The position numbers were made by a program, and so were the translations under genes. Under the pieces are notes generated by a model, which saw only the letters and a list, made by a program, of their open reading frames with translations, was not told the DNA's origin and did not search any database. 64,000 bases of DNA from Escherichia coli. GTDB taxonomy: Bacteria; Pseudomonadota; Gammaproteobacteria; Enterobacterales; Enterobacteriaceae. Position 1 is the stretch's first letter. Each line of letters starts with the position of its first letter. Below, piece after piece: positions 4,200-62,317 of this stretch. The DNA lies in the NCBI RefSeq assembly GCF_003991155.1, contig NZ_CP031294.1; one strand, written 5' to 3'.

Positions 4200-4892
4200 T
4201 TAGACCATCCCTTTCTGGTGTCTTCTTACCTGCGACCAGGCGATAAATCCAGCCACAACAATAGTGGCAATACCGAAGATGATGCGTACTGTATCCCCGC
4301 TAGAGATATGACCTTGTGCTTTATCCATAGCAGCGGAAACCTGCGGCATAACATCGGCCAGCTGCGCCAGACCAATACCTGCTGTAACAGTTGCGCCAGC
4401 GGTTTCTTTAGTTACAGGAACAGCCTTCACGGTTTTCACCGGCTTAACGACGCCAGCTCGACGCAGACCTTCCTCAATAACTTCTGCCGCATACCAGGTG
4501 TTCAGCGTTTTTAGTGGACCTCGACCATTCTCGTGGCGAATGATTGCCTCAACCAAAGGTCGAAGGATGTCGTAATCATGCAGATCGATGATCATGTCTG
4601 CGGTTACACCAACGGCTTTAGACACCTCATTAATGTAGGCGTCAGTGTTGTTTTCATTCGGCGGTGCCCAACGTTCAATAACTTCACGAATGGTATCGAT
4701 ACTTGAGCCGTCTTTTGCGCGACGTTTGTCGTGGTAGGTAATTAGAGTCACCGCCAGCGCACGAATCCCCCAAACAGGGTCTTTAAACGTGCAAAAGCGC
4801 GGTTCGTCTGGATTCGCAACCAGACCTTGCCACGGTGATCCTTTATCAAGATTACCGGGGTTATTATTACGAATGCCTCTCGGAGTCTTCAT
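4200..4892 (-). CDS. putative peptidoglycan hydrolase/endolysin with a C-terminal TM anchor
   Basis: Start moved to ATG 4892 (AGGAG 7 nt upstream). N-terminal GIRNNNPGNL motif family is seen in phage lytic enzymes. C-terminal hydrophobic helix IIFGIATIVVAGFIAW. Position lies between the holin-like gene and the spanins. Confidence 0.55.
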   Translation of the reverse strand: MKTPRGIRNNNPGNLDKGSPWQGLVANPDEPRFCTFKDPVWGIRALAVTLITYHDKRRAKDGSSIDTIREVIERWAPPNENNTDAYINEVSKAVGVTADMIIDLHDYDILRPLVEAIIRHENGRGPLKTLNTWYAAEVIEEGLRRAGVVKPVKTVKAVPVTKETAGATVTAGIGLAQLADVMPQVSAAMDKAQGHISSGDTVRIIFGIATIVVAGFIAWSQVRRHQKGMV

Positions 4893-46417: not shown

Positions 46418-48451
46418 TTACTTAACCTGGTGGCCTGGTTTAGCACCAGCATCCGGGCTTAACAGGAAGATATCTTTCCCGCCGGGGCCAGCAGCCATCA
46501 CCATGCCTTCGGAGATACCGAAGCGCATTTTACGCGGAGCCAGGTTAGCCACCATAATGGTGTGACGACCAATCAGTGCCTGTGGGTCTGGATAAGCAGA
46601 ACGGATGCCTGAGAAGACATTACGCTTTTCACCACCGAGATCCAGTGTCAGACGCAGCAGTTTGTCAGAACCTTCGACAAACTCCGCGTTTTCAATCAGC
46701 GCCACACGCAGGTCAACTTTGGCGAAGTCGTCAAAGGTGATGGTTTCCTGAATCGGGTCGTCAGCCAGTGGGCCAGTTACCGGTGCAGCTGTGGCTTTCA
46801 CTTCTTCTTTGGATGCTTCCACCAGTGCTTCCACCTGTTTCATATCGATACGGTTATACAATGCCTTGAACGGATTCACTTTATGGCCCAGCAGCGGTTG
46901 CTGGATACCATCCCAGGTCAGTTCTGTATTCAGGAATGCTTCTGCACGTTCAGTCAGTTTCGGCAGTACCGGTTTCAAGTACGTCATCAGCACGCGGAAC
47001 AGGTTAATGCCCATAGAGCAAATCGCCTGCAGATCGGCATCGCGTCCTTCCTGCTTCGCCACCACCCACGGAGCCTGTTCATCGACATATCGGTTAGCCA
47101 GGTCAGCCAATGCCATGATTTCACGGATAGCTTTACCAAATTCGCGGCTTTCCCATGCTTCGCCAATCACTTCAGCGGCATCAGTAAAGGTTTTGTACAG
47201 TTGCGGGTCAGCCAGTTCGCTTGCCAGCACGCCGTCAAAACGCTTGTTGATAAAGCCTGCATTACGGGAGGCCAGGTTAACCACTTTGTTCACGATATCG
47301 GCATTCACGCGCTGAACGAAATCCTCCAGGTTGAGATCGATATCATCAATGCGCGAAGAGAGTTTCGCAGTGTAGTAGTAACGCAGGCTGTCGGCGTCAA
47401 AATGATTCAGCCAGGTGCTGGCTTTAATAAAGGTGCCGCGAGACTTGGACATCTTCGCGCCGTTCACCGTCACATAGCCGTGAACAAACAGGTTGGTCGG
47501 CTTGCGGAAGTTGCTGCCTTCCAGCATGGCAGGCCAGAACAGGCTGTGGAAGTAAACAATATCTTTACCGATGAAGTGGTACAGCTCGGCTGTGGAGTCT
47601 TTCTTCCAGTATTCATCGAAGCTGGTGGTATCGCCGCGCTTGTCGCACAGATTCTTGAAGGAACCCATGTAGCCAATCGGCGCGTCCAGCCAGACGTAGA
47701 AATATTTGCCCGGCGCGTTCGGAATTTCAAAACCGAAGTAAGGCGCATCGCGGGAGATATCCCACTGTTGCAGGCCGGATTCAAACCACTCCTGCATTTT
47801 GTTCGCCACCTGCTCCTGCAACGCACCGCTGCGGGTCCATGCCTGCAACATTTCGCTGAAAGAGGGCAGATCAAAGAAGAAGTGTTCGGAATCACGCATT
47901 ACCGGGGTAGCGCCAGAAACCACCGATTTCGGCTCGATCAATTCAGTCGGGCTATATGTTGCGCCGCAGACTTCACAGTTATCGCCGTATTGATCTGGCG
48001 CTTTACATTTCGGGCAGGTGCCTTTCACAAAACGATCCGGCAGGAACATGCCTTTTTCCGGGTCGTACAACTGAGAGATAGTGCGGTTTTTAATAAAACC
48101 GTTCTCTTTCAGGCGAGTATAGATAAGCTCAGACAGCTGGCGGTTCTCTTCGCTGTGCGTCGAGTGATAGTTGTCATAGCTGATGTTAAAGCCTGCGAAA
48201 TCAGTCTGGTGTTCCTGACTCATTTCGCCAATCATCTGCTCCGGTGTGATACCAAGCTGCTGTGCTTTCAGCATGATCGGCGTACCGTGGGCATCGTCGG
48301 CACAGATGAAATTAACCTCGTGGCCGCGCATTCGCTGGTAACGAACCCAGACATCAGCCTGGATGTGCTCCAGCATATGGCCGAGGTGGATTGAGCCGTT
48401 AGCGTACGGCAGCGCGCACGTCACCAGAATTTTCTTCGCGACTTGGGTCAT
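46418..48451 (-). CDS. metG: methionyl-tRNA synthetase
   Basis: 677 aa from [29 protein letters not shown]. Has KMSKS and the C-terminal tRNA-binding domain. Near-identical to E. coli/Salmonella MetRS from memory. The ORF-track start at 48580 is an upstream in-frame extension. Confidence 0.97.
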
Positions 48452-48608
48452 AGTAGGCATTACTTCTTTGTAGTGAAAAGGGGCTTGATAGTAACAAAAT
48501 GGCCTTATGTCTGCCATGTGATAACAGCATTTCTCATAAATGATTAAATGTCGTAGCTGGAGTACACTACAAGGCGACAATTGCGCAAATTAAAATAAAG
48601 GAGACGGG

Positions 48609-49709
48609 ATGAGCGAGTCCAAATCGCCGGATGCCCTGAGAGCAATGGTAGCCGGTACGCTGGCTAATTTTCAGCACCCAACCCTGAAACACAACCTGAC
48701 TACGCTTAAAGCGTTACACCATGTTGCGTTGATGGATGACACACTGCATGTCGAACTAATCATGCCTTTCGTGTGGAATAAGCCTTTTGAAGACCTGAAA
48801 GAGCAATGTAGTGGTGATCTGCTCCGTATCACTGGCGCAAAGGCTATTGACTGGAAGCTGTCGTACAACATTGCCACGCTTAAGCGCGTCAAAAACCAAC
48901 CAGGCATTAATGGCGTTAAGAACATTATCGCCGTCAGCTCAGGCAAGGGCGGCGTGGGTAAATCCTCCACGGCGGTAAACCTGGCACTGGCGTTGGCTGC
49001 TGAAGGTGCGAAAGTTGGTATTTTGGATGCCGATATCTATGGTCCATCAATTCCAACCATGCTGGGCGCGGAAAACCAACGTCCAACCTCACCTGACGGT
49101 ACTCACATGGCACCTATCATGTCTCATGGCCTGGCAACCAACTCTATTGGTTATCTGGTCACCGACGACAATGCAATGGTGTGGCGTGGACCGATGGCCA
49201 GCAAGGCGCTGATGCAGATGTTGCAGGAAACTCTATGGCCTGATCTGGACTATCTCGTTCTCGATATGCCGCCGGGCACTGGTGATATTCAGTTGACGCT
49301 GGCGCAGAACATTCCTGTAACTGGTGCGGTTGTGGTAACTACGCCGCAAGACATCGCGCTGATCGATGCGAAGAAAGGCATTGTGATGTTCGAAAAAGTC
49401 GAAGTGCCGGTACTGGGTATCGTCGAAAACATGAGTGTGCATATTTGCAGTAACTGCGGTCATCACGAGCCAATTTTTGGCACCGGTGGCGCACAGAAAC
49501 TGGCCGAGAAATACAACACGCAGTTGTTAGGCCAAATGCCACTTCATATCTCTCTTCGTGAAGATCTGGATAACGGAACACCAACCGTTATTAGTCGTCC
49601 AGATAGCGAATTTACGGCTATTTATCGTGACCTCGCAGATCGCGTTGCCGCCCAAATGTATTGGCAAGGTGAAGTAATACCTGGCGAAATCGCATTCCGC
49701 GCAGTGTGA
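48609..49709 (+). CDS. apbC: Fe-S cluster carrier ATPase Mrp/ApbC
   Basis: 366 aa. P-loop SSGKGGVGKS and the CSNCGHH motif. Divergent from metG, as in enterobacterial chromosomes. Confidence 0.95.
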   Translation: MSESKSPDALRAMVAGTLANFQHPTLKHNLTTLKALHHVALMDDTLHVELIMPFVWNKPFEDLKEQCSGDLLRITGAKAIDWKLSYNIATLKRVKNQPGINGVKNIIAVSSGKGGVGKSSTAVNLALALAAEGAKVGILDADIYGPSIPTMLGAENQRPTSPDGTHMAPIMSHGLATNSIGYLVTDDNAMVWRGPMASKALMQMLQETLWPDLDYLVLDMPPGTGDIQLTLAQNIPVTGAVVVTTPQDIALIDAKKGIVMFEKVEVPVLGIVENMSVHICSNCGHHEPIFGTGGAQKLAEKYNTQLLGQMPLHISLREDLDNGTPTVISRPDSEFTAIYRDLADRVAAQMYWQGEVIPGEIAFRAV

Positions 49710-50837: not shown

Positions 50838-52396
50838 ATGAAAATGACAAGTATTCAACAACGTGCAGAGCTTCATCGCCAGATCTGGCAAATTGCTAAC
50901 GATGTCAGGGGTTCAGTCGATGGATGGGATTTTAAGCAGTACGTTTTGGGCGCGCTTTTTTACCGTTTTATCAGCGAAAATTTTTCCAGTTATATTGAAG
51001 CCGGTGATGACAGTATCTGTTATGCGAAACTGGATGACAGCGTAATTACTGATGACATTAAAGACGATGCCATCAAAACTAAAGGCTACTTCATCTACCC
51101 CAGTCAGCTTTTCTGCAACGTAGCTGCGAAAGCAAATACTAATGACAGACTGAATGCAGATTTAAACAGCATCTTCGTTGCTATCGAAAGTTCTGCTTAC
51201 GGTTATCCTTCAGAAGCTGACATCAAAGGTTTGTTTGCTGATTTCGATACCACCAGTAACCGCCTGGGTAACACCGTTAAAGATAAAAATGCCCGCTTGG
51301 CTGCGGTTCTGAAAGGGGTTGAAGGGCTAAAACTTGGTGACTTCCATGAACATCAGATTGACCTGTTCGGTGACGCCTATGAGTTCCTGATTTCTAACTA
51401 TGCGGCGAATGCCGGTAAGTCCGGCGGCGAGTTCTTTACACCGCAGCACGTCTCTAAGCTGATTGCACAACTGGCTATGCACGGGCAGACCCACGTTAAC
51501 AAAATCTACGACCCGGCAGCAGGCTCCGGTTCGCTGTTGTTGCAGGCGAAAAAACAGTTTGATGACCATATCATCGAAGAAGGTTTTTTTGGTCAGGAAA
51601 TCAACCATACGACCTATAACCTGGCGCGTATGAACATGTTTTTGCACAACATCAACTACGACAAGTTTGATATCAAGCTGGGTAATACACTGACTGAGCC
51701 GCACTTCAGAGATGAAAAACCGTTTGATGCCATCGTTTCTAACCCGCCGTATTCGGTGAAATGGATTGGCAGCGATGACCCGACGCTGATTAACGATGAA
51801 CGTTTTGCCCCGGCTGGCGTTCTGGCCCCCAAATCCAAAGCTGACTTTGCGTTTGTATTACATGCGCTGAACTATCTTTCGGCCAAAGGTCGCGCTGCGA
51901 TTGTCTGCTTCCCAGGCATTTTTTACCGTGGCGGCGCGGAGCAGAAAATCCGTCAGTATCTGGTCGACAATAACTATGTCGAAACCGTGATTTCACTGGC
52001 ACCGAATCTGTTCTTTGGCACCACTATTGCCGTCAATATTCTGGTGCTGTCTAAACATAAAACGGATACCAAAGTTCAGTTTATTGATGCCAGCGAACTG
52101 TTCAAAAAAGAGACTAACAACAACATTCTGACCGATGCTCATATCGAACAGATTATGCAGGTATTTGCCAGCAAGGAAGATGTTGCTCATCTGGCGAAAT
52201 CTGTTGCGTTTGAGACTGTTGTCGCGAATGACTATAACCTGTCGGTGAGCAGCTATGTGGAAGCGAAAGATACTCGCGAAATTATCGATATCGCTGAGCT
52301 GAATGCTGAGCTGAAAACCACGGTCAGCAAAATCGACCAGTTGCGTAAAGATATTGATGCGATTGTTGCTGAGATTGAAGGTAGCGAGGTACAGGC

Positions 52397-52400
<4 letters not shown>
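50838..52400 (+). CDS. hsdM: type I R-M methyltransferase subunit, type IC (EcoR124 family)
   Basis: 520 aa. [25 protein letters not shown]..., SAM motif DPAAGSGS, catalytic NPPYS. Essentially EcoR124I HsdM from memory. Confidence 0.95.
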
Positions 52401-53656
<1,256 letters not shown>

Positions 53657-53777
53657 TTGACCATTGCTACCGACCGGATCACCTTAACATCCGGTCTATA
53701 TAGAGACTATTTTTTACACGCCGGAAGTCGCCCTTAAAGCCCTTCCGGCCCTTGCCAGACGGCACAAAGGATGCGCT

Positions 53778-56700
53778 ATGACTCATCAGACACACACCAT
53801 TGCTGAATCCAATAACTTTATCGTTCTTGATAAGTACATCAAAGCCGAGCAAACAGGCGACAGCTACCAGAGCGAATCGGACCTGGAACGTGAACTGATT
53901 CAGGATCTGCGGAATCAGGGCTATGAATTTATTTCCGTAAAATCTCAGTCGGCGATGCTGGCCAACGTTCGGGAACAGCTTCAGAGCCTCAATGGTGTGA
54001 TGTTTAATGACAGCGAGTGGCGGCGCTTCACGGAGCAGTATCTGGACAACCCCAGCGATGGTATTCTGGATAAAACCCGTAAAATCCATATCGACTATAT
54101 CTGCGACTTTATTTTTGACGACGGGCGACTTGAGAACATCTATTTGATAGATAAAAAGAATCTCATGCGCAATAAGGTGCAGATTATCCAGCAGTTTGAA
54201 CAGACGGGTTCTCATGCTAACCGTTATGACGTCACGATCCTGGTTAATGGTTTACCGCTGGTGCAAATCGAACTAAAAAAACGCGGGGTGGCGATTCGTG
54301 AGGCTTTCAACCAGATACATCGTTACAGTAAAGAGAGTTTTAACAGCGAAAATTCCCTGTTTAAGTATCTGCAACTGTTTGTCATTTCTAACGGCACCGA
54401 TACCCGTTATTTTGCCAACACGACAAAGCGCGATAAAAACAGTTTTGACTTCACCATGAATTGGGCGAAATCAGACAACACGCTGATTAAAGACCTCAAA
54501 GACTTTACCGCTACCTTTTTCCAGAAACATACTCTGCTGAATGTTCTGGTGAACTACAGCGTTTTTGACAGTAGTCAGACGCTACTGGTGATGCGACCGT
54601 ACCAGATTGCCGCCACCGAGCGCATTCTGTGGAAAATTAAGAGTTCCTTTACAGCGAAGAACTGGTCAAAACCGGAAAGCGGTGGGTATATCTGGCATAC
54701 TACCGGTTCTGGTAAAACCCTCACCAGCTTTAAAGCCGCGCGTCTGGCAACAGAGCTGGACTTTATTGATAAAGTCTTCTTTGTGGTCGACAGGAAAGAC
54801 CTCGATTACCAGACCATGAAGGAATATCAGCGTTTTTCGCCAGACAGCGTCAACGGCTCGGAAAATACCGCAGGCCTTAAACGAAATCTGGATAAGGACG
54901 ATAACAAAATTATCGTCACTACTATTCAGAAACTCAATAACCTGATGAAAGCAGAAAGCGACCTGCCTGTATATAATCAGCAAGTGGTGTTTATATTTGA
55001 TGAATGCCACCGCAGCCAGTTTGGAGAAGCGCAGAAAAACCTGAAGAAGAAATTCAAACGCTATTATCAGTTTGGTTTTACCGGCACCCCTATTTTCCCG
55101 GAAAACGCTTTAGGCTCAGAAACGACCGCCAGCGTATTTGGTCGTGAATTGCATTCGTATGTAATTACCGATGCGATTCGTGATGAAAAAGTGCTCAAAT
55201 TCAAGGTGGACTACAACGATGTGCGGCCACAGTTTAAATCTTTAGAGACAGAAACCGACGAGAAAAAACTGAGTGCGGCTGAAAATCAGCAGGCATTTCT
55301 TCATCCCATGCGTATACAGGAAATTACGCAATATATTCTGAATAACTTCCGCCAGAAGACCCACCGTACTTTCCCAGGTTCCAAAGGCTTTAATGCCATG
55401 CTGGCAGTGAGTAGCGTGGATGCCGCGAAAGCCTATTACGCGACGTTTAAACGGTTACAAGAGGAAGCAGCTAATAAATCGGCTACCTATAAACCGCTGC
55501 GTGTTGCAACAATCTTCTCCTTTGCCGCCAATGAAGAACAAAATGCCATTGGTGAAATTTCCGATGAAACTTTTGATACCAGCGCAATGGACAGCAGTGC
55601 TAAAGAGTTTCTTGACGCTGCAATTCGTGAGTATAACAGCTATTTTAAAACTAACTTCAGCACCGACAGTAACGGTTTTCAGAACTACTATCGTGATTTA
55701 GCCCAACGGGTTAAAAATCAGGATATCGATCTGTTAATTGTCGTTGGGATGTTTTTAACCGGCTTCGACGCTCCAACATTGAACACGCTATTCGTCGATA
55801 AAAACTTGCGTTTTCACGGCCTGATGCAGGCATTCTCCCGTACCAACCGCATTTATGACGCTACTAAAACCTTCGGTAACATCGTCACTTTTCGGGATCT
55901 GGAACGCTCAACCATTGATGCCATAACGCTGTTTGGTGATAAAAATACTAAAAATGTGGTGTTAGAAAAGAGTTATGCTGAGTATATGGAAGGCTTTACA
56001 GATGCTGCCACTGGTGAAGCTAAACGCGGCTTTATGGCAGTAGTTTCAGAACTGGAACAACGGTTCCCTGACCCTGCCAGTATTGAAAGTGAAAAACAGA
56101 AGAAAGACTTCGTAAAACTGTTTGGTGAATACCTGCGTGCCGAGAACATCCTGCAAAACTATGATGAATTTGCCACGCTGAAAGCCCTGCAACAAATCGA
56201 TCTTAGCGATCCTGTTGCGGTAGAAAAATTCAAAGCAGAACATTATGTGGATGATGAAAAGTTCGCTGAATTGCAAACAATTCGTCTCCCTGCTGAACGC
56301 AAGATTCAGGATTATCGTTCTGCCTATAACGATATTCGCGACTGGCAGCGCCGTGAGAAAGAAGCTGAGAAAAAAGAGAAATCAACCACTGACTGGGATG
56401 ACGTAGTTTTTGAGGTCGATTTGCTGAAGTCTCAGGAAATAAACCTGGATTATATCCTTGGACTGATTTTCGAACACAACAGACAAAATAAAGGCAAGGG
56501 CGAAATGATCGAAGAGGTCAAACGCTTAATTCGTTCAAGCCTGGGGAACCGGGCGAAAGAGGGCCTGGTGGTCGATTTTATTCAGCAAACGAACCTGGAT
56601 GATTTACCAGACAAAGCCAGTATCATTGAGGCATTCTTTACGTTTGCTCAACGCGAACAGCAACGTGAAGCAGAAGCATTGATAAAAGAAGAAAATCTCA

Positions 56701-56894
56701 ATGAAGAGGCGGCGAAACGCTATATTCGCACGTCTTTAAAACGCGAATACGCCACCGAAAATGGCACAGAATTAAACGAGACATTACCAAAACTTAGTCC
56801 GTTAAACCCGCAATATAAAACGAAAAAACAGACCGTTTTCCAGAAAATCGTCACGTTTATTGAAAAGTTCAAAGGAGTAGGTGGGCAGATATAG
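53778..56894 (+). CDS. hsdR: type IC restriction/translocase subunit
   Basis: 1038 aa. Motor motifs TTGSGKT and FDECHRS. Has its own promoter region after a 121-bp gap, as in EcoR124. Confidence 0.95.
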
Positions 56895-60706: not shown

Positions 60707-60728
60707 GATAGGTAAACACTTACTTACC
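60707..60728 (-). promoter_or_regulatory. L-type dyad motif (right of the metG-hsd block)
   Basis: The gene strand reads GGTAAGTAAGTGTTTACCTATCAT. GGTAA/TTACC arms. Confidence 0.4.
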
Positions 60729-61317
60729 ACTTGTTATAAACAAAACCAATATCTTTCTTGTGAGGCATATCTGCTGCTGAAAAAGCTGCGATCTTCGCGA
60801 GTCGATCACATATTTCATTTTCACGATGCCCGGCGTGACCTTTAACCCACTTCCAGCGAACATTATGTCGACTTGCGGCCTCATCCAGACGTTTCCACAG
60901 ATCAACATTCTTTACCGGTTTTTTATCAGAAGTCATCCATCCATTACGTTTCCACCATTTCATCCACTGTGTCATGCCGTTTTTCAGATACTGGCTATCA
61001 GAGTACAAAATAACGTTGCATGGATATTTCAAACGCTCCAGCCCGATAAGTGCGCCCATCATCTCCATGCGGTTATTGGTGGTGCTATGAAAACCATCTG
61101 AGAACTCGCGTTCCTCACCACGATACTGGAGAACGATACCGTAACCGCCCGGGCCACCCGGATTTTTAAGGCAAGAGCCATCACTAAAGATTTTCACGGT
61201 TTTGAGCTGGGGATTGAACTCTACGACAGGCGTTGTGGGATTGGTGCGGGGAGAATTTTTGTTTTTGGCTTTTTTGCGAGTTTTTGCTTGCGATCGGGCT
61301 GGTGTCTTCGTCGTCAT
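60724..61317 (-). CDS. rnhA: RNase HI with a basic N-terminal extension
   Basis: Trimmed to ATG 61317 (CAGGAG 5 nt upstream). RNase H core FSDGSC...GGYG...TNNRMEM...SDSQY...W..H.GH..NE..D, preceded by about 45 aa rich in K/R/P/T. Confidence 0.85.
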
Positions 61318-61355
61318 ATAAACTCCTGAATCAAGCGCCGCGCCGATTTTTTCCT

Positions 61356-61380
61356 CGCGCGTGCGCACACGCGTGCGTGT
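61356..61380. repeat. 25-nt perfectly alternating pyrimidine-purine tract (Z-DNA-prone)
   Basis: CGCGCGTGCGCACACGCGTGCGTGT. Contains the 8-bp palindromes GTGCGCAC and CACGCGTG. Confidence 0.85.
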
Positions 61381-61403
61381 TAATAATTATTAAAATAAAC
61401 AAA

Positions 61404-61783
61404 TTACTTCCCAGAACAGGTTTTTTATAAACCTGAACTGAACGAACGAAGTGAGTGAAGTTCACCTCGAACGAAGTGAGAGGTTGTCTTTTCAGGTAAT
61501 ACTCTCCCAGGGAGGTGAGTATAAAATTCCTCACCAACCTGGTCGTTTCATAACCTGAAAAGCTATGGTCTAAGTCTACTGCCAGCTTAGACTTGGGAAG
61601 TTATGGATGACAGCACCCCAGAACCGAGATCTTCCCACACTTTATGAAGGGGAGTACTGGATTCAACCTCTCGAAACACCCCAGACTCGACAATCATAAA
61701 GTGACCCTTGTCTCTGCTCACTTTGGTTCCCCCTTCCCCGACACCTAAACGGCACCGGTTCTACGCTGGTAGTGAGCTTTTTT
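61404..61783 (+). ncRNA. candidate about 345-nt structured RNA (orientation tentative)
   Basis: Promoter-like TTACTT-N16-TATAAA (61404-61431). Direct repeats CGAACGAAGTGAG x2. Nested helices: GTCTAAG/CTTAGAC, GGGAAG/CTTCCC, ACTTTATGA/TCATAAAGT enclosing GGGG/CCCC, and GCTCACT/AGTGAGC followed by T6 (61778-61783). No credible ORF. Confidence 0.4.
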
Positions 61784-61882
61784 AAACCTGACGCCAGTGA
61801 CGCTTACCCCCACCCATCAGGTCGAGTCTCCAGTCTACGACTGGAAACTATCAGATCTTAGCACTTACAATTCACTTTATGA

Positions 61883-61901
61883 ATAGTTTGTACTTATCTA
61901 T
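61883..61901 (-). promoter_or_regulatory. L-type motif (degenerate)
   Basis: The gene strand reads ATAGATAAGTACAAACTAT. Confidence 0.3.
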
Positions 61902-62131
61902 CATTTCGATTGATTATTTTTTCGACCATGTAGTTGAACATTCAAGGCAAACACCTCGTTGATCAACTCACCTAAAAGCTGTTCAACAAGTTCGCGATGC
62001 TCCCCAAGATGCAAGCACTTAATTGCCCATTCGTACAAGTTGAAAGCCTGCTCACGATCTTTCATCATTTCACGAGCCTGGGCCAGAAAATCGCTCTCTA
62101 CGAGCGCAACGACATTAGTCGGATATGACAT
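61901..62131 (-). CDS. hypothetical small protein (76 aa)
   Basis: Trimmed to ATG 62131 (AAGGAAACC upstream): MSYPTNVVALVESDFLAQ... Confidence 0.5.
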   Translation of the reverse strand: MSYPTNVVALVESDFLAQAREMMKDREQAFNLYEWAIKCLHLGEHRELVEQLLGELINEVFALNVQLHGRKNNQSK

Positions 62132-62238
62132 GTTGGTTTCCTTAAAGTGGTTCATAAAATCGATTTTAAAGCGTCTGGGAAGGGGTTCTAGTGGATTCTG
62201 TAGTGGTGTTCAGGTCTGGGAGTCTCTGATATAAAACA

Positions 62239-62295
62239 GCCTGCTTCCGTATATTAATAATTAATATGTAGTTATTTATATATACAGAAGCAGGC
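62239..62295. repeat. 57-bp inverted-repeat element, copy 2
   Basis: Arms GCCTGCTTCCGTATAT / ATATACAGAAGCAGGC (15/16 complementary) around an AT-rich spacer. Same context as copy 1 (gene stop, then element, then next gene). Confidence 0.8.
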
Positions 62296-62317
62296 TAATT
62301 ACAGACGCCAGAACAAA

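Follow-up and report, generated by a model that had tools for sequence, protein, structure and literature searches.

We describe here a structured, non-coding element in a 64,000-nucleotide stretch of Escherichia coli DNA (contig NZ_CP031294.1; the whole stretch is called the window below), whose source is an SSU5-type phage-plasmid of Enterobacteriaceae. The element is flanked by rnhA (60724–61317, minus strand), the gene for RNase HI, and by a gene for a protein of 76/84 amino acids (aa) that belongs to phrog_5343 and has no assigned function (61901–62155, minus strand). The sequence between these two genes is non-coding, is under strong selection and maintains base pairing on the minus strand. 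Our favoured reading, to which we give slightly better than an even chance, is that it is an autonomous gene for a large, compactly folded minus-strand RNA of ~455 nucleotides (nt) that would act through its shape. A preliminary description, made from the letters of the window alone, had already pointed to a folded, non-coding RNA at this place and was right about its kind; the length of ~345 nt, the plus strand, the antisense orientation and the ends that it gave do not hold, and the RNA is instead predicted to run on the minus strand from ~61848 to 61392.

61392–61848, minus strand: structured non-coding RNA gene, ~455 nt, with its ends placed by the predicted promoter and by the closing stem and U-tract.

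We found no conserved open reading frame (ORF) in 61300–61900, as each ORF of at least 25 aa is interrupted by a frameshift or stop codon in one or more related clades, and the indels among homologues are not multiples of three. Since no reading frame is kept across clades, the region is non-coding, which bears out the earlier statement that 61318–61900 holds no credible ORF. Homologues were collected by means of the RNase H protein, the upstream 76-aa protein and conserved motifs, yielding 132 near-complete copies, 109 of them distinct. Between clades the core of the element (61404–61826) is 89–95% identical, compared with 74–82% for the coding sequences of rnhA, the 76-aa protein and dam, while the flanks (61380–61403 and 61827–61900) vary among relatives; the conserved unit as a whole extends over ~61385–61883. 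A divergent clade (L085, L087 and L147–L150) retains ~68–70% identity to the window over the aligned core, and L093 is intermediate. One further candidate for a divergent homologue, L092 (a Logan contig, SRR8137545), was dropped: it is a window-type sequence in which essentially every C is read as T, and therefore an assembly of bisulfite-converted reads and not a divergent relative.

Folding the minus strand of a 53-sequence alignment of close relatives with RNAalifold gave 134 pairs in 18 helices. In this model 99.7% of the alignment cells are paired, as against 35–48% when the partners are slid, and the covariation score is 0.088 compared with 0.057, with none of 500 shuffles reaching 0.088; covariation at homologous loci, which the preliminary description had named as a check on its RNA, is thus present. 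With the divergent homologues added, double compensatory changes are seen in 39 of 116 predicted pairs. The RNA comprises ~15 helices, most of them with compensatory double changes, and its parts are listed here from the 5′ end.

61826–61848, minus strand: H0, the 5′-terminal hairpin; double changes in 4 of 7 pairs.
61785–61823, minus strand: H1, CCUGAUG...CGUCAGG around the conserved GGGUGGRGG and CUGGC; double changes in 5 of 15 pairs.
61778–61784, minus strand: A-rich single-stranded linker UUUAAAAAA between H1 and H2; conserved, with 5–8 A.
61716–61777, minus strand: H2 domain with the closing stem GCUCACU/AGUGAGC; double changes in 3 of 7 closing pairs.
61638–61703, minus strand: H8/H9, a long hairpin made of CACUUUAUGA/UCAUAAAGUG and GAGUCUGG/CCAG.ACUC; double changes in 11 of 20 pairs.
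61664–61672, minus strand: 5′ arm of the putative pseudoknot, GAGAGGUUG, in the apical region of H8/H9.
61594–61637, minus strand: H11 (GGGAAG/CUUCCC) with the inner helix H12 and the conserved GAUCUYGRUUCUGGGG; 100% canonical.
61568–61592, minus strand: H13 hairpin, GUCUAAG...CUUAGAC; double changes in 5 of 10 pairs, 100% canonical.
61488–61562, minus strand: H14/H15, a long irregular hairpin made of CUUUUCAGGU/ACCUGAAAAG and CCAGG..GGUGAG/CUCACC..CCUGG; double changes in 2 of 11 pairs of H15.
61478–61486, minus strand: 3′ arm of the putative pseudoknot, CAACCUCUC.
61403–61480, minus strand: 3′ domain, in which the closing stem H16 (CUCACUUC/GAAGUAAK) surrounds H17 and H18; double changes in 4 of 8 pairs of H18.

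The sequence of H0 is wholly different between clades, yet the hairpin is always kept and always starts at the predicted +1. Within the H2 domain, the closing stem encloses the hairpin H4 (61738–61758), the conserved UACCAGCG and the G-rich GGGGARAGGGRGAAYCAAAG, and the apical loop of H4 is GUUUA, GAAA or UUCG depending on the clade. Double changes occur in 3 of 7 pairs of H11 and in 1 of 5 pairs of H12, and H14 shows a swap from A-U to U-A in L085. A possible small hairpin, CAUAGC/GUUAUG (61549–61567), with one compensatory change, competes with H14. The arms of H16 pair 61480–61473 with 61410–61403. The two long-range arms listed above form a 9-base-pair (bp) pairing, GAGAGGUUG (61672–61664) with CAACCUCUC (61486–61478), that is 99.3% canonical and carries a single compensatory change, a G-to-U substitution matched by a C-to-A one in L093; this pairing probably forms a long-range pseudoknot, which would compete with a GAGA/UCUC helix.

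Much of the pairing proposed beforehand reappears in this model: GTCTAAG/CTTAGAC, GGGAAG/CTTCCC, ACTTTATGA/TCATAAAGT and GCTCACT/AGTGAGC are all supported by covariation. A pairing of GGGG with CCCC is superseded by the covarying helix GAGUCUGG/CCAG.ACUC, and a supposed T6 terminator (61778–61783) is, on the minus strand, the A-rich linker that separates H1 from H2. All three AACCTGA copies were confirmed, as were two 13-nt repeats at 61443 and 61468, both inside the 3′ domain; the second repeat is absent from the divergent clade (L085 and L087), which has a simple YCCNR-UUC-UGGGN hairpin instead, and the two repeats are a lineage-specific duplication. A 16S-like stretch, UCACCUCC, was also considered and then dropped, as it is not conserved in the divergent clade.

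We assign the RNA to the minus strand, sense to the flanking genes, on the strength of four features of the alignment and its folding. Among pairs with a Watson-Crick majority, minority states of the G.U type occur on the minus strand at 45 sites and those of the A.C type at 22 (binomial p = 0.003), in a test that is slightly biased towards the strand used for folding. On the minus strand, G.U is also the default state of 14 pairs. The GAAA and UUCG loops of H4 are RNA-type capping loops only when read on this strand, UUCG and GNRA loops being RNA-stability motifs. Lastly, the fold z-scores favour it both in the window (−3.26 for the minus and −2.41 for the plus strand) and in the 68%-identical homologue L085 (−2.77 and −1.32).

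The predicted start and end of the RNA are marked by three further elements.

61878–61883, minus strand: −35 element of the predicted promoter, TTCATA in the window and TTTACn or TTTAAA in alignments of other clades.
61855–61864, minus strand: extended −10 element, GTGcTAAGAT (TGnTAnnAT), 17 nt from the −35 element, with a predicted start at ~61848.
61385–61402, minus strand: U-rich tract directly after the closing stem, part of an AT-only, sequence-variable spacer (61380–61403).

Every clade has a −35-like hexamer, and only the Klebsiella type (TTGTAGAAT) departs from TGnTAnnAT, amid sequence that is not conserved; a consensus scan of SSU5 returned TTTAAA-17-TAAAAT with an upstream TG on the same strand. 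The predicted start is the first base of H0. Host sigma-70 RNA polymerase would, from these motifs, start the RNA at a TTTACn-17-TGnTAnnAT promoter. Just upstream of the −35 element, at 61890–61898, lies an exact copy of GATAAGTAC, kept there as TAAGTAC; with up to one mismatch this sequence occurs at 24 sites in the window, where 9.4 are expected, and none of 100 shuffles reaches 24.

At the other end, a U-rich stretch, defined as 8 nt with at least 6 U, begins no more than 7 nt from UUCUGGG in 77 of the 109 distinct sequences and 5–7 nt from it in 71; in most of the remaining sequences the UUCUGGG search pattern caught an internal copy instead. The divergent clade ends in the YCCNR-UUC-UGGGN hairpin followed by a U-run, with weak terminator-like calls in L085. 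Most sequences therefore carry a stem or small hairpin and a U-rich run; this is not the canonical GC hairpin with U8, and a terminator scan of the window returned none. The U-tract at 61385–61402 is a likely intrinsic termination site.

Downstream of the RNA, between its U-tract and rnhA, lies a second conserved feature.

61335–61380, no strand assigned: conserved GC-rich tract with a 25-nt pyrimidine–purine run, CGCGCGAGG, a poly-A/T run and GCGCCGCG.

The run (61356–61380) is a perfect 25-nt purine–pyrimidine alternation, of which by our own estimate ~0.01 are expected per 64 kb, and it contains the palindromes GTGCGCAC (61361–61368) and CACGCGTG (61368–61375), exactly as first reported. 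In the sense of the RNA, CGCGCGAGG lies at 61353–61361, and its form YGCGCGAGR recurs ~50 nt past the last helix in every clade, even where rnhA is missing. Read in this direction, the tract folds into a GC hairpin that has an A-rich loop and immediately precedes the rnhA Shine-Dalgarno sequence (61323–61327). In the loop lies a poly-T run (poly-A in RNA sense) at 61347–61352 whose length ranges from 5 to 9 nt among relatives that are more than 98% identical, and which may be a hypermutable tract. The Z-DNA-prone character noted before holds up and is conserved; outside the RNA proper, the alternating run is an expansion around the conserved GCGCGAG motif and the GC hairpin.

The element is confined to one group of replicons. 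In PLSDB, a distant blastn search found it in 686 plasmids, 676 of them typed non-mobilizable, from Klebsiella, Escherichia, Enterobacter, Salmonella, Citrobacter, Cronobacter and other hosts; among the matches listed, all are phage-plasmids of ~100 kb and no small ColE1-type plasmid appears. Twelve SSU5-type phage records contain it, and it occurs in 231 of 5,426 complete E. coli genomes (~4%), at 231 plasmid places and 2 chromosomal ones, with no annotation beneath the element among the matches listed. An 801-base segment around the locus matches E. coli plasmids, NZ_CP080149 among them, at 100% identity, and the phages SSU5, Cyrano and PhiR41_1 and several Klebsiella phage-plasmids at 87–99%; outside the locus, the window and NZ_CP080149 are not collinear. 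A scan of a genome collection with a 33-nt motif matched only two Kluyvera contigs, and an IMG/VR scan with a degenerate motif spanning the clades returned SSU5-type contigs only and no new context. There are no paralogues within the window, the RNase H homologues of other phages (L066, L067 and L075–L082) lack the element according to nhmmer and a covariance model, and the covariance model of the central domain matches family members only.

The element sits next to rnhA in the main clades, whereas in L085 and L087 rnhA is absent from the 3 kb downstream. In this divergent clade the next gene encodes an unrelated 200-aa protein with no RNase H motifs, no PHROG match and no above-threshold Pfam match; a separate promoter for this gene, TTGATC-16-TATGAT, lies between it and the element, and a Tad2-like gene and then one for TerB come next. 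As the downstream gene is not an RNase H here, rnhA is a neighbour and not an obligatory partner of the RNA. Where the two do adjoin, in window-type clades, read-through from the RNA promoter may feed rnhA. The element separates a conserved module (exonuclease, phrog_5235, Dam and phrog_5343) from a variable accessory region. The Tad2-like (anti-Thoeris) gene, at 4605–4916 of L085 and ~0.9 kb downstream of the RNA, scores 31.6 bits against a Pfam cut-off of 25, and its presence suggests that the variable region beyond the RNA is an accessory or anti-defence island.

If the element is an autonomous RNA gene, the predicted sequence of events is as follows. Sigma-70 RNA polymerase would make a transcript with a protective 5′ hairpin, which would fold into three multi-helix domains joined by the GAGAGGUUG:CAACCUCUC pseudoknot and would end at the closing stem and U-tract; in rnhA-bearing clades this terminator is probably leaky, such that some transcripts would continue into rnhA. 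With low confidence, we suggest that the RNA acts via its folded shape, either by binding or scaffolding a protein of the phage or of the host or as a particle made of RNA only, and not by long antisense pairing. A regulatory antisense RNA had been offered as one option; the RNA would be sense to its neighbours, and it has no complementarity of at least 13 nt anywhere in ~118 kb of phage-plasmid DNA (the window and 54 kb of a related plasmid), where a lone 12-mer is at chance level, in a search that addresses extended pairing; pairing through short seeds may still occur. Equally tentative is the suggestion that the RNA, which invariably lies at the edge of the DNA-metabolism or accessory gene region, serves that region.

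A bolder version, which we regard as a possibility well short of even, is that SSU5-type phage-plasmids encode a new RNA class with a shape-dependent activity of its own, be it a ribozyme, an RNA-only assembly like those of ROOL and GOLLD, or the subunit of a ribonucleoprotein. Such an RNA could control replication, the switch from plasmid to lytic growth or anti-defence; as a variant, it could represent the first R-loop or preprimer RNA origin of a tailed phage-plasmid, processed by the phage RNase HI.

Several observations weigh against an autonomous, shape-dependent RNA. Its promoter, its ends and its stability are all predicted from sequence, and the closing stem encloses two hairpins, unlike a textbook terminator. 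A consensus scan of window-type clades found no separate sigma-70 promoter for rnhA, which leaves room for an RNA that is chiefly a leader. With one genomic slot in one phage-plasmid group, the family is narrow, and no partner protein or target was identified; Pfam and PHROGs searches of the neighbouring proteins returned no RNA-binding or reverse-transcriptase partner. Finally, the sister clade L089–L091, whose 76-aa protein is 70% identical, has an unrelated non-coding stretch of 713 nt in the same slot (2226–2937 of L089), with a sense-strand fold z-score of −5.25 (antisense −2.16) and two tandem RNase H-like ORFs downstream. Neither nhmmer nor the covariance model, both with filters off, found homology between this stretch and the RNA family. 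An unrelated structured sequence in the same slot hints at a role that depends on position, and models in which the element acts in cis therefore stay alive.

The alternative that survives best, though we consider it unlikely, makes the transcript a preprimer or R-loop RNA of a second, possibly lytic, origin, by analogy with ColE1 RNA II or the mitochondrial light-strand promoter/conserved sequence block (LSP/CSB) transcript. The G-rich, structured transcript would form a lasting hybrid with its C-rich template, the AT-rich spacer would melt, and RNase HI would trim a primer for the phage DnaE replisome. The G-runs GGGUGGRGG and GGGGARAGGGRG are indeed conserved even in the divergent clade, the spacer keeps its AT-only composition while its sequence is free and is followed by the conserved GC motif, rnhA is adjacent in most clades, and the element lies in the DNA-metabolism module. 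Mutually exclusive helices are possible, as in RNA II, and the plasmid's RepA replicon is distant, making a second origin conceivable. The same G-runs, however, lie near the 5′ end, away from the putative melting site, and the stem and U-tract would end the RNA before the AT-rich region is reached. Nor is there a downstream RNase H in the divergent clade, although host RNase HI could substitute where the phage rnhA is missing. A simple consensus scan for an RNA I-like countertranscript found no plus-strand promoter-like site facing the 5′ ~110 nt of the RNA, RNAI (RF00106) has no Rfam match, and GC skew shows no switch at the locus, where it tracks gene orientation only. The plasmid matches listed are of the ~100-kb phage-plasmid type and none is ColE1-like. 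The analogy to RNA II drawn in the preliminary description is weakened accordingly.

Rather unlikely, in our view, is a cis-acting leader or attenuator of the rnhA operon, in which alternative folds or a bound factor, possibly the basic-tailed RNase HI itself, would set termination against read-through or translation. Apart from the missing rnhA promoter and the structured sequence in the slot of the sister clade, this reading can draw on a stem and U-tract that are atypical and may leak, on conserved competing helices (CAUAGC/GUUAUG with H14; the pseudoknot with GAGA/UCUC) and on the conserved GC hairpin abutting the rnhA Shine-Dalgarno sequence. What speaks against it is that the RNA is kept in the divergent clade, where the downstream gene is unrelated and has a good promoter of its own, and that no riboswitch, T-box or leader family matches; at 455 nt the RNA also far exceeds any leader known to us.

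It is very unlikely that the element works at the level of DNA with no functional RNA, be it in single-stranded form, as a primosome or ssi-type site, or in the duplex, as an array of protein-binding sites, a pac site or a Z-DNA switch. Primary-sequence conservation is very high, loops included, the Z-DNA-prone tract and the AT-rich block are conserved as well, and covariation by itself cannot separate RNA from single-stranded DNA. Against this, the conserved promoter stands exactly at the first hairpin, the UUCG and GNRA loops are of the kind that stabilizes RNA, and a double-stranded site would not keep its pairing through G.U-type intermediates on one strand. We found no iterons, and by eye no conserved sites for DnaA or integration host factor.

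The plus-strand antisense RNA of ~345 nt proposed in the preliminary description, which would run from TTACTT-16-TATAAA (61404–61431) to GCTCACT/AGTGAGC and the T6 at 61783, retains scarcely any credibility. The motifs exist (TTACTT at 61404–61409, TATAAA at 61426–61431), the plus strand folds better than shuffles (z = −2.41), and Watson-Crick helices are present on both strands. As a promoter the motifs fail: the −35 hexamer matches the consensus at 2 of 6 positions, the scan does not list the site, and TATAAA falls in the variable, non-conserved loop of the covarying hairpin H18. Conservation and the covarying helices H1 and H0 run 45–70 nt past the proposed 3′ end, and the half-compensated and default G.U pairs, the GAAA and UUCG loops and the conserved promoter all favour the minus strand.

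A decayed protein-coding or small-protein gene, the finding that the preliminary description had said would count against a functional RNA, is effectively refuted, for all that Cyrano is annotated with a 44-aa ORF inside the RNA (3388–3522 of L002), that the SSU5 RNase H ORF is prolonged into it (2415–3179 of L001) and that PGAP labels rnhA of NZ_CP080149.1 (92415–93075; 4416–5076 of L232) a frameshifted pseudogene reaching into the GC tract, since no frame is conserved, the indels are not multiples of three, the substitutions compensate pairs and the region is more conserved than real genes. Public annotations at this locus are thus wrong in placing ORFs across the RNA, in lengthening RNase H and in flagging rnhA as a pseudogene.

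Returning to the surroundings of the element, the adjoining gene is the following.

60724–61317, minus strand: rnhA, RNase HI of 197 aa; Pfam RNase_H at residues 40–178, E = 1.2e-45.

The RNase_H domain of RnhA is preceded by a basic N-terminal extension, ~39 aa long where ~45 aa had been estimated, and the general character of this extension is kept in the rnhA-bearing clades. Upstream, beyond the pair formed by rnhA and the 76-aa gene, lie genes for a phage Dam methylase and an exonuclease, and in a related plasmid the same DNA-metabolism module includes nrdAB, thyA, a ligase, dnaE, a primase and a DnaB-like helicase. The plasmid RepA replicon is far from the RNA locus. Between the Dam gene and the 76-aa gene there is a long, AT-rich, near-perfect inverted repeat (62208–62300), which gives only sub-threshold ‘miRNA’ matches in Rfam, as does the corresponding position in L089 and L093; the repeat may serve as an operator or terminate transcription in both directions. 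Elsewhere the window carries as cargo a full-length methionyl-tRNA synthetase, a ParA-like ATPase of the Mrp/NUBPL type and a complete type I restriction-modification system (hsdM, hsdS and hsdR), at 46418–48580 (minus strand), 48609–49709 (plus strand) and 50838–56894 (plus strand), respectively.

SSU5-type phage-plasmids are common in clinical Enterobacteriaceae and can carry resistance genes such as dfrA51. The locus described here is their best-conserved non-coding locus, and we know of very few large structured RNAs from plasmid-like replicons. Should the RNA control replication, copy number or the choice between lysogeny and lysis, it would embody a new regulatory principle and offer a handle on the spread of phage-plasmids; should it be a ribozyme, a ribonucleoprotein or an RNA-only particle, it would be a new class among the few large RNAs recognized in bacteria.

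The element is a well-supported RNA family, and to judge from Rfam 15 and the literature open to searching, it is new and undescribed. At gathering thresholds Rfam 15 gave no match anywhere in the window; in sensitive mode, 61000–62300 and four homologous loci gave only sub-threshold chance matches to miRNA, hepatitis C virus and small RNA families. Riboswitch, T-box, leader, RNase P, 6S and group I/II intron families of Rfam 15 have no match, and ARAGORN found no tRNA or transfer-messenger RNA in the window, in keeping with the preliminary description, which could not match the region to tRNA, transfer-messenger RNA or RNase P. A resemblance of GGGUGG...UACCAGCG to a T-box was dropped, there being no T-box match and the organisms being Gram-negative. 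Literature searches on SSU5 and pHCM2 RNAs, on the sequence itself, on R-loop origins in phage-plasmids and on large phage RNAs found no description.

Set beside known systems, the RNA resembles several of them in part. Like the C4 RNA of P1 and P7 and the CI RNA of P4, it is a non-coding RNA of a phage that lives as a plasmid, and it points in the sense direction of its operon. C4 and CI RNAs, ~70–80 nt long, arise by processing of a leader and find their pairing sites within that same transcript, whereas here there are no C4 or C4-a1b1 matches and no complementary sites were found. With 6S RNA and the CsrB-type sponges it shares its own sigma-70 promoter (here predicted), a 5′ hairpin and a 3′ end made of a stem and U-tract, and its conservation likewise exceeds the needs of target pairing; unlike them, it lacks the 6S central bubble and repeated GGA loops, and has no Rfam match. 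The likeness to RNA II of ColE1 and pMB1 is that of a structured RNA, several hundred nucleotides long and encoded by a plasmid-like replicon, with G-rich segments, an AT-rich block downstream and, in most clades, an RNase HI gene adjoining it. In contrast to RNA II, no RNA I partner and no homology to the ColE1 origin were found, the 3′ end is terminator-like, the RNA is kept in a clade without an adjacent RNase H, and the replicon has RepA, DnaE, a primase and a helicase. From ROOL and GOLLD, both of which are in Rfam 15 and do not score against the new RNA even at E up to 10, it differs in being smaller, in its restriction to SSU5-type phage-plasmids of Enterobacteriaceae and in occupying one fixed slot that is not beside tRNAs. 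Like ROOL and GOLLD, which also have no obvious antisense target, it is a large (>400 nt), multi-domain, covarying RNA of a temperate phage element.

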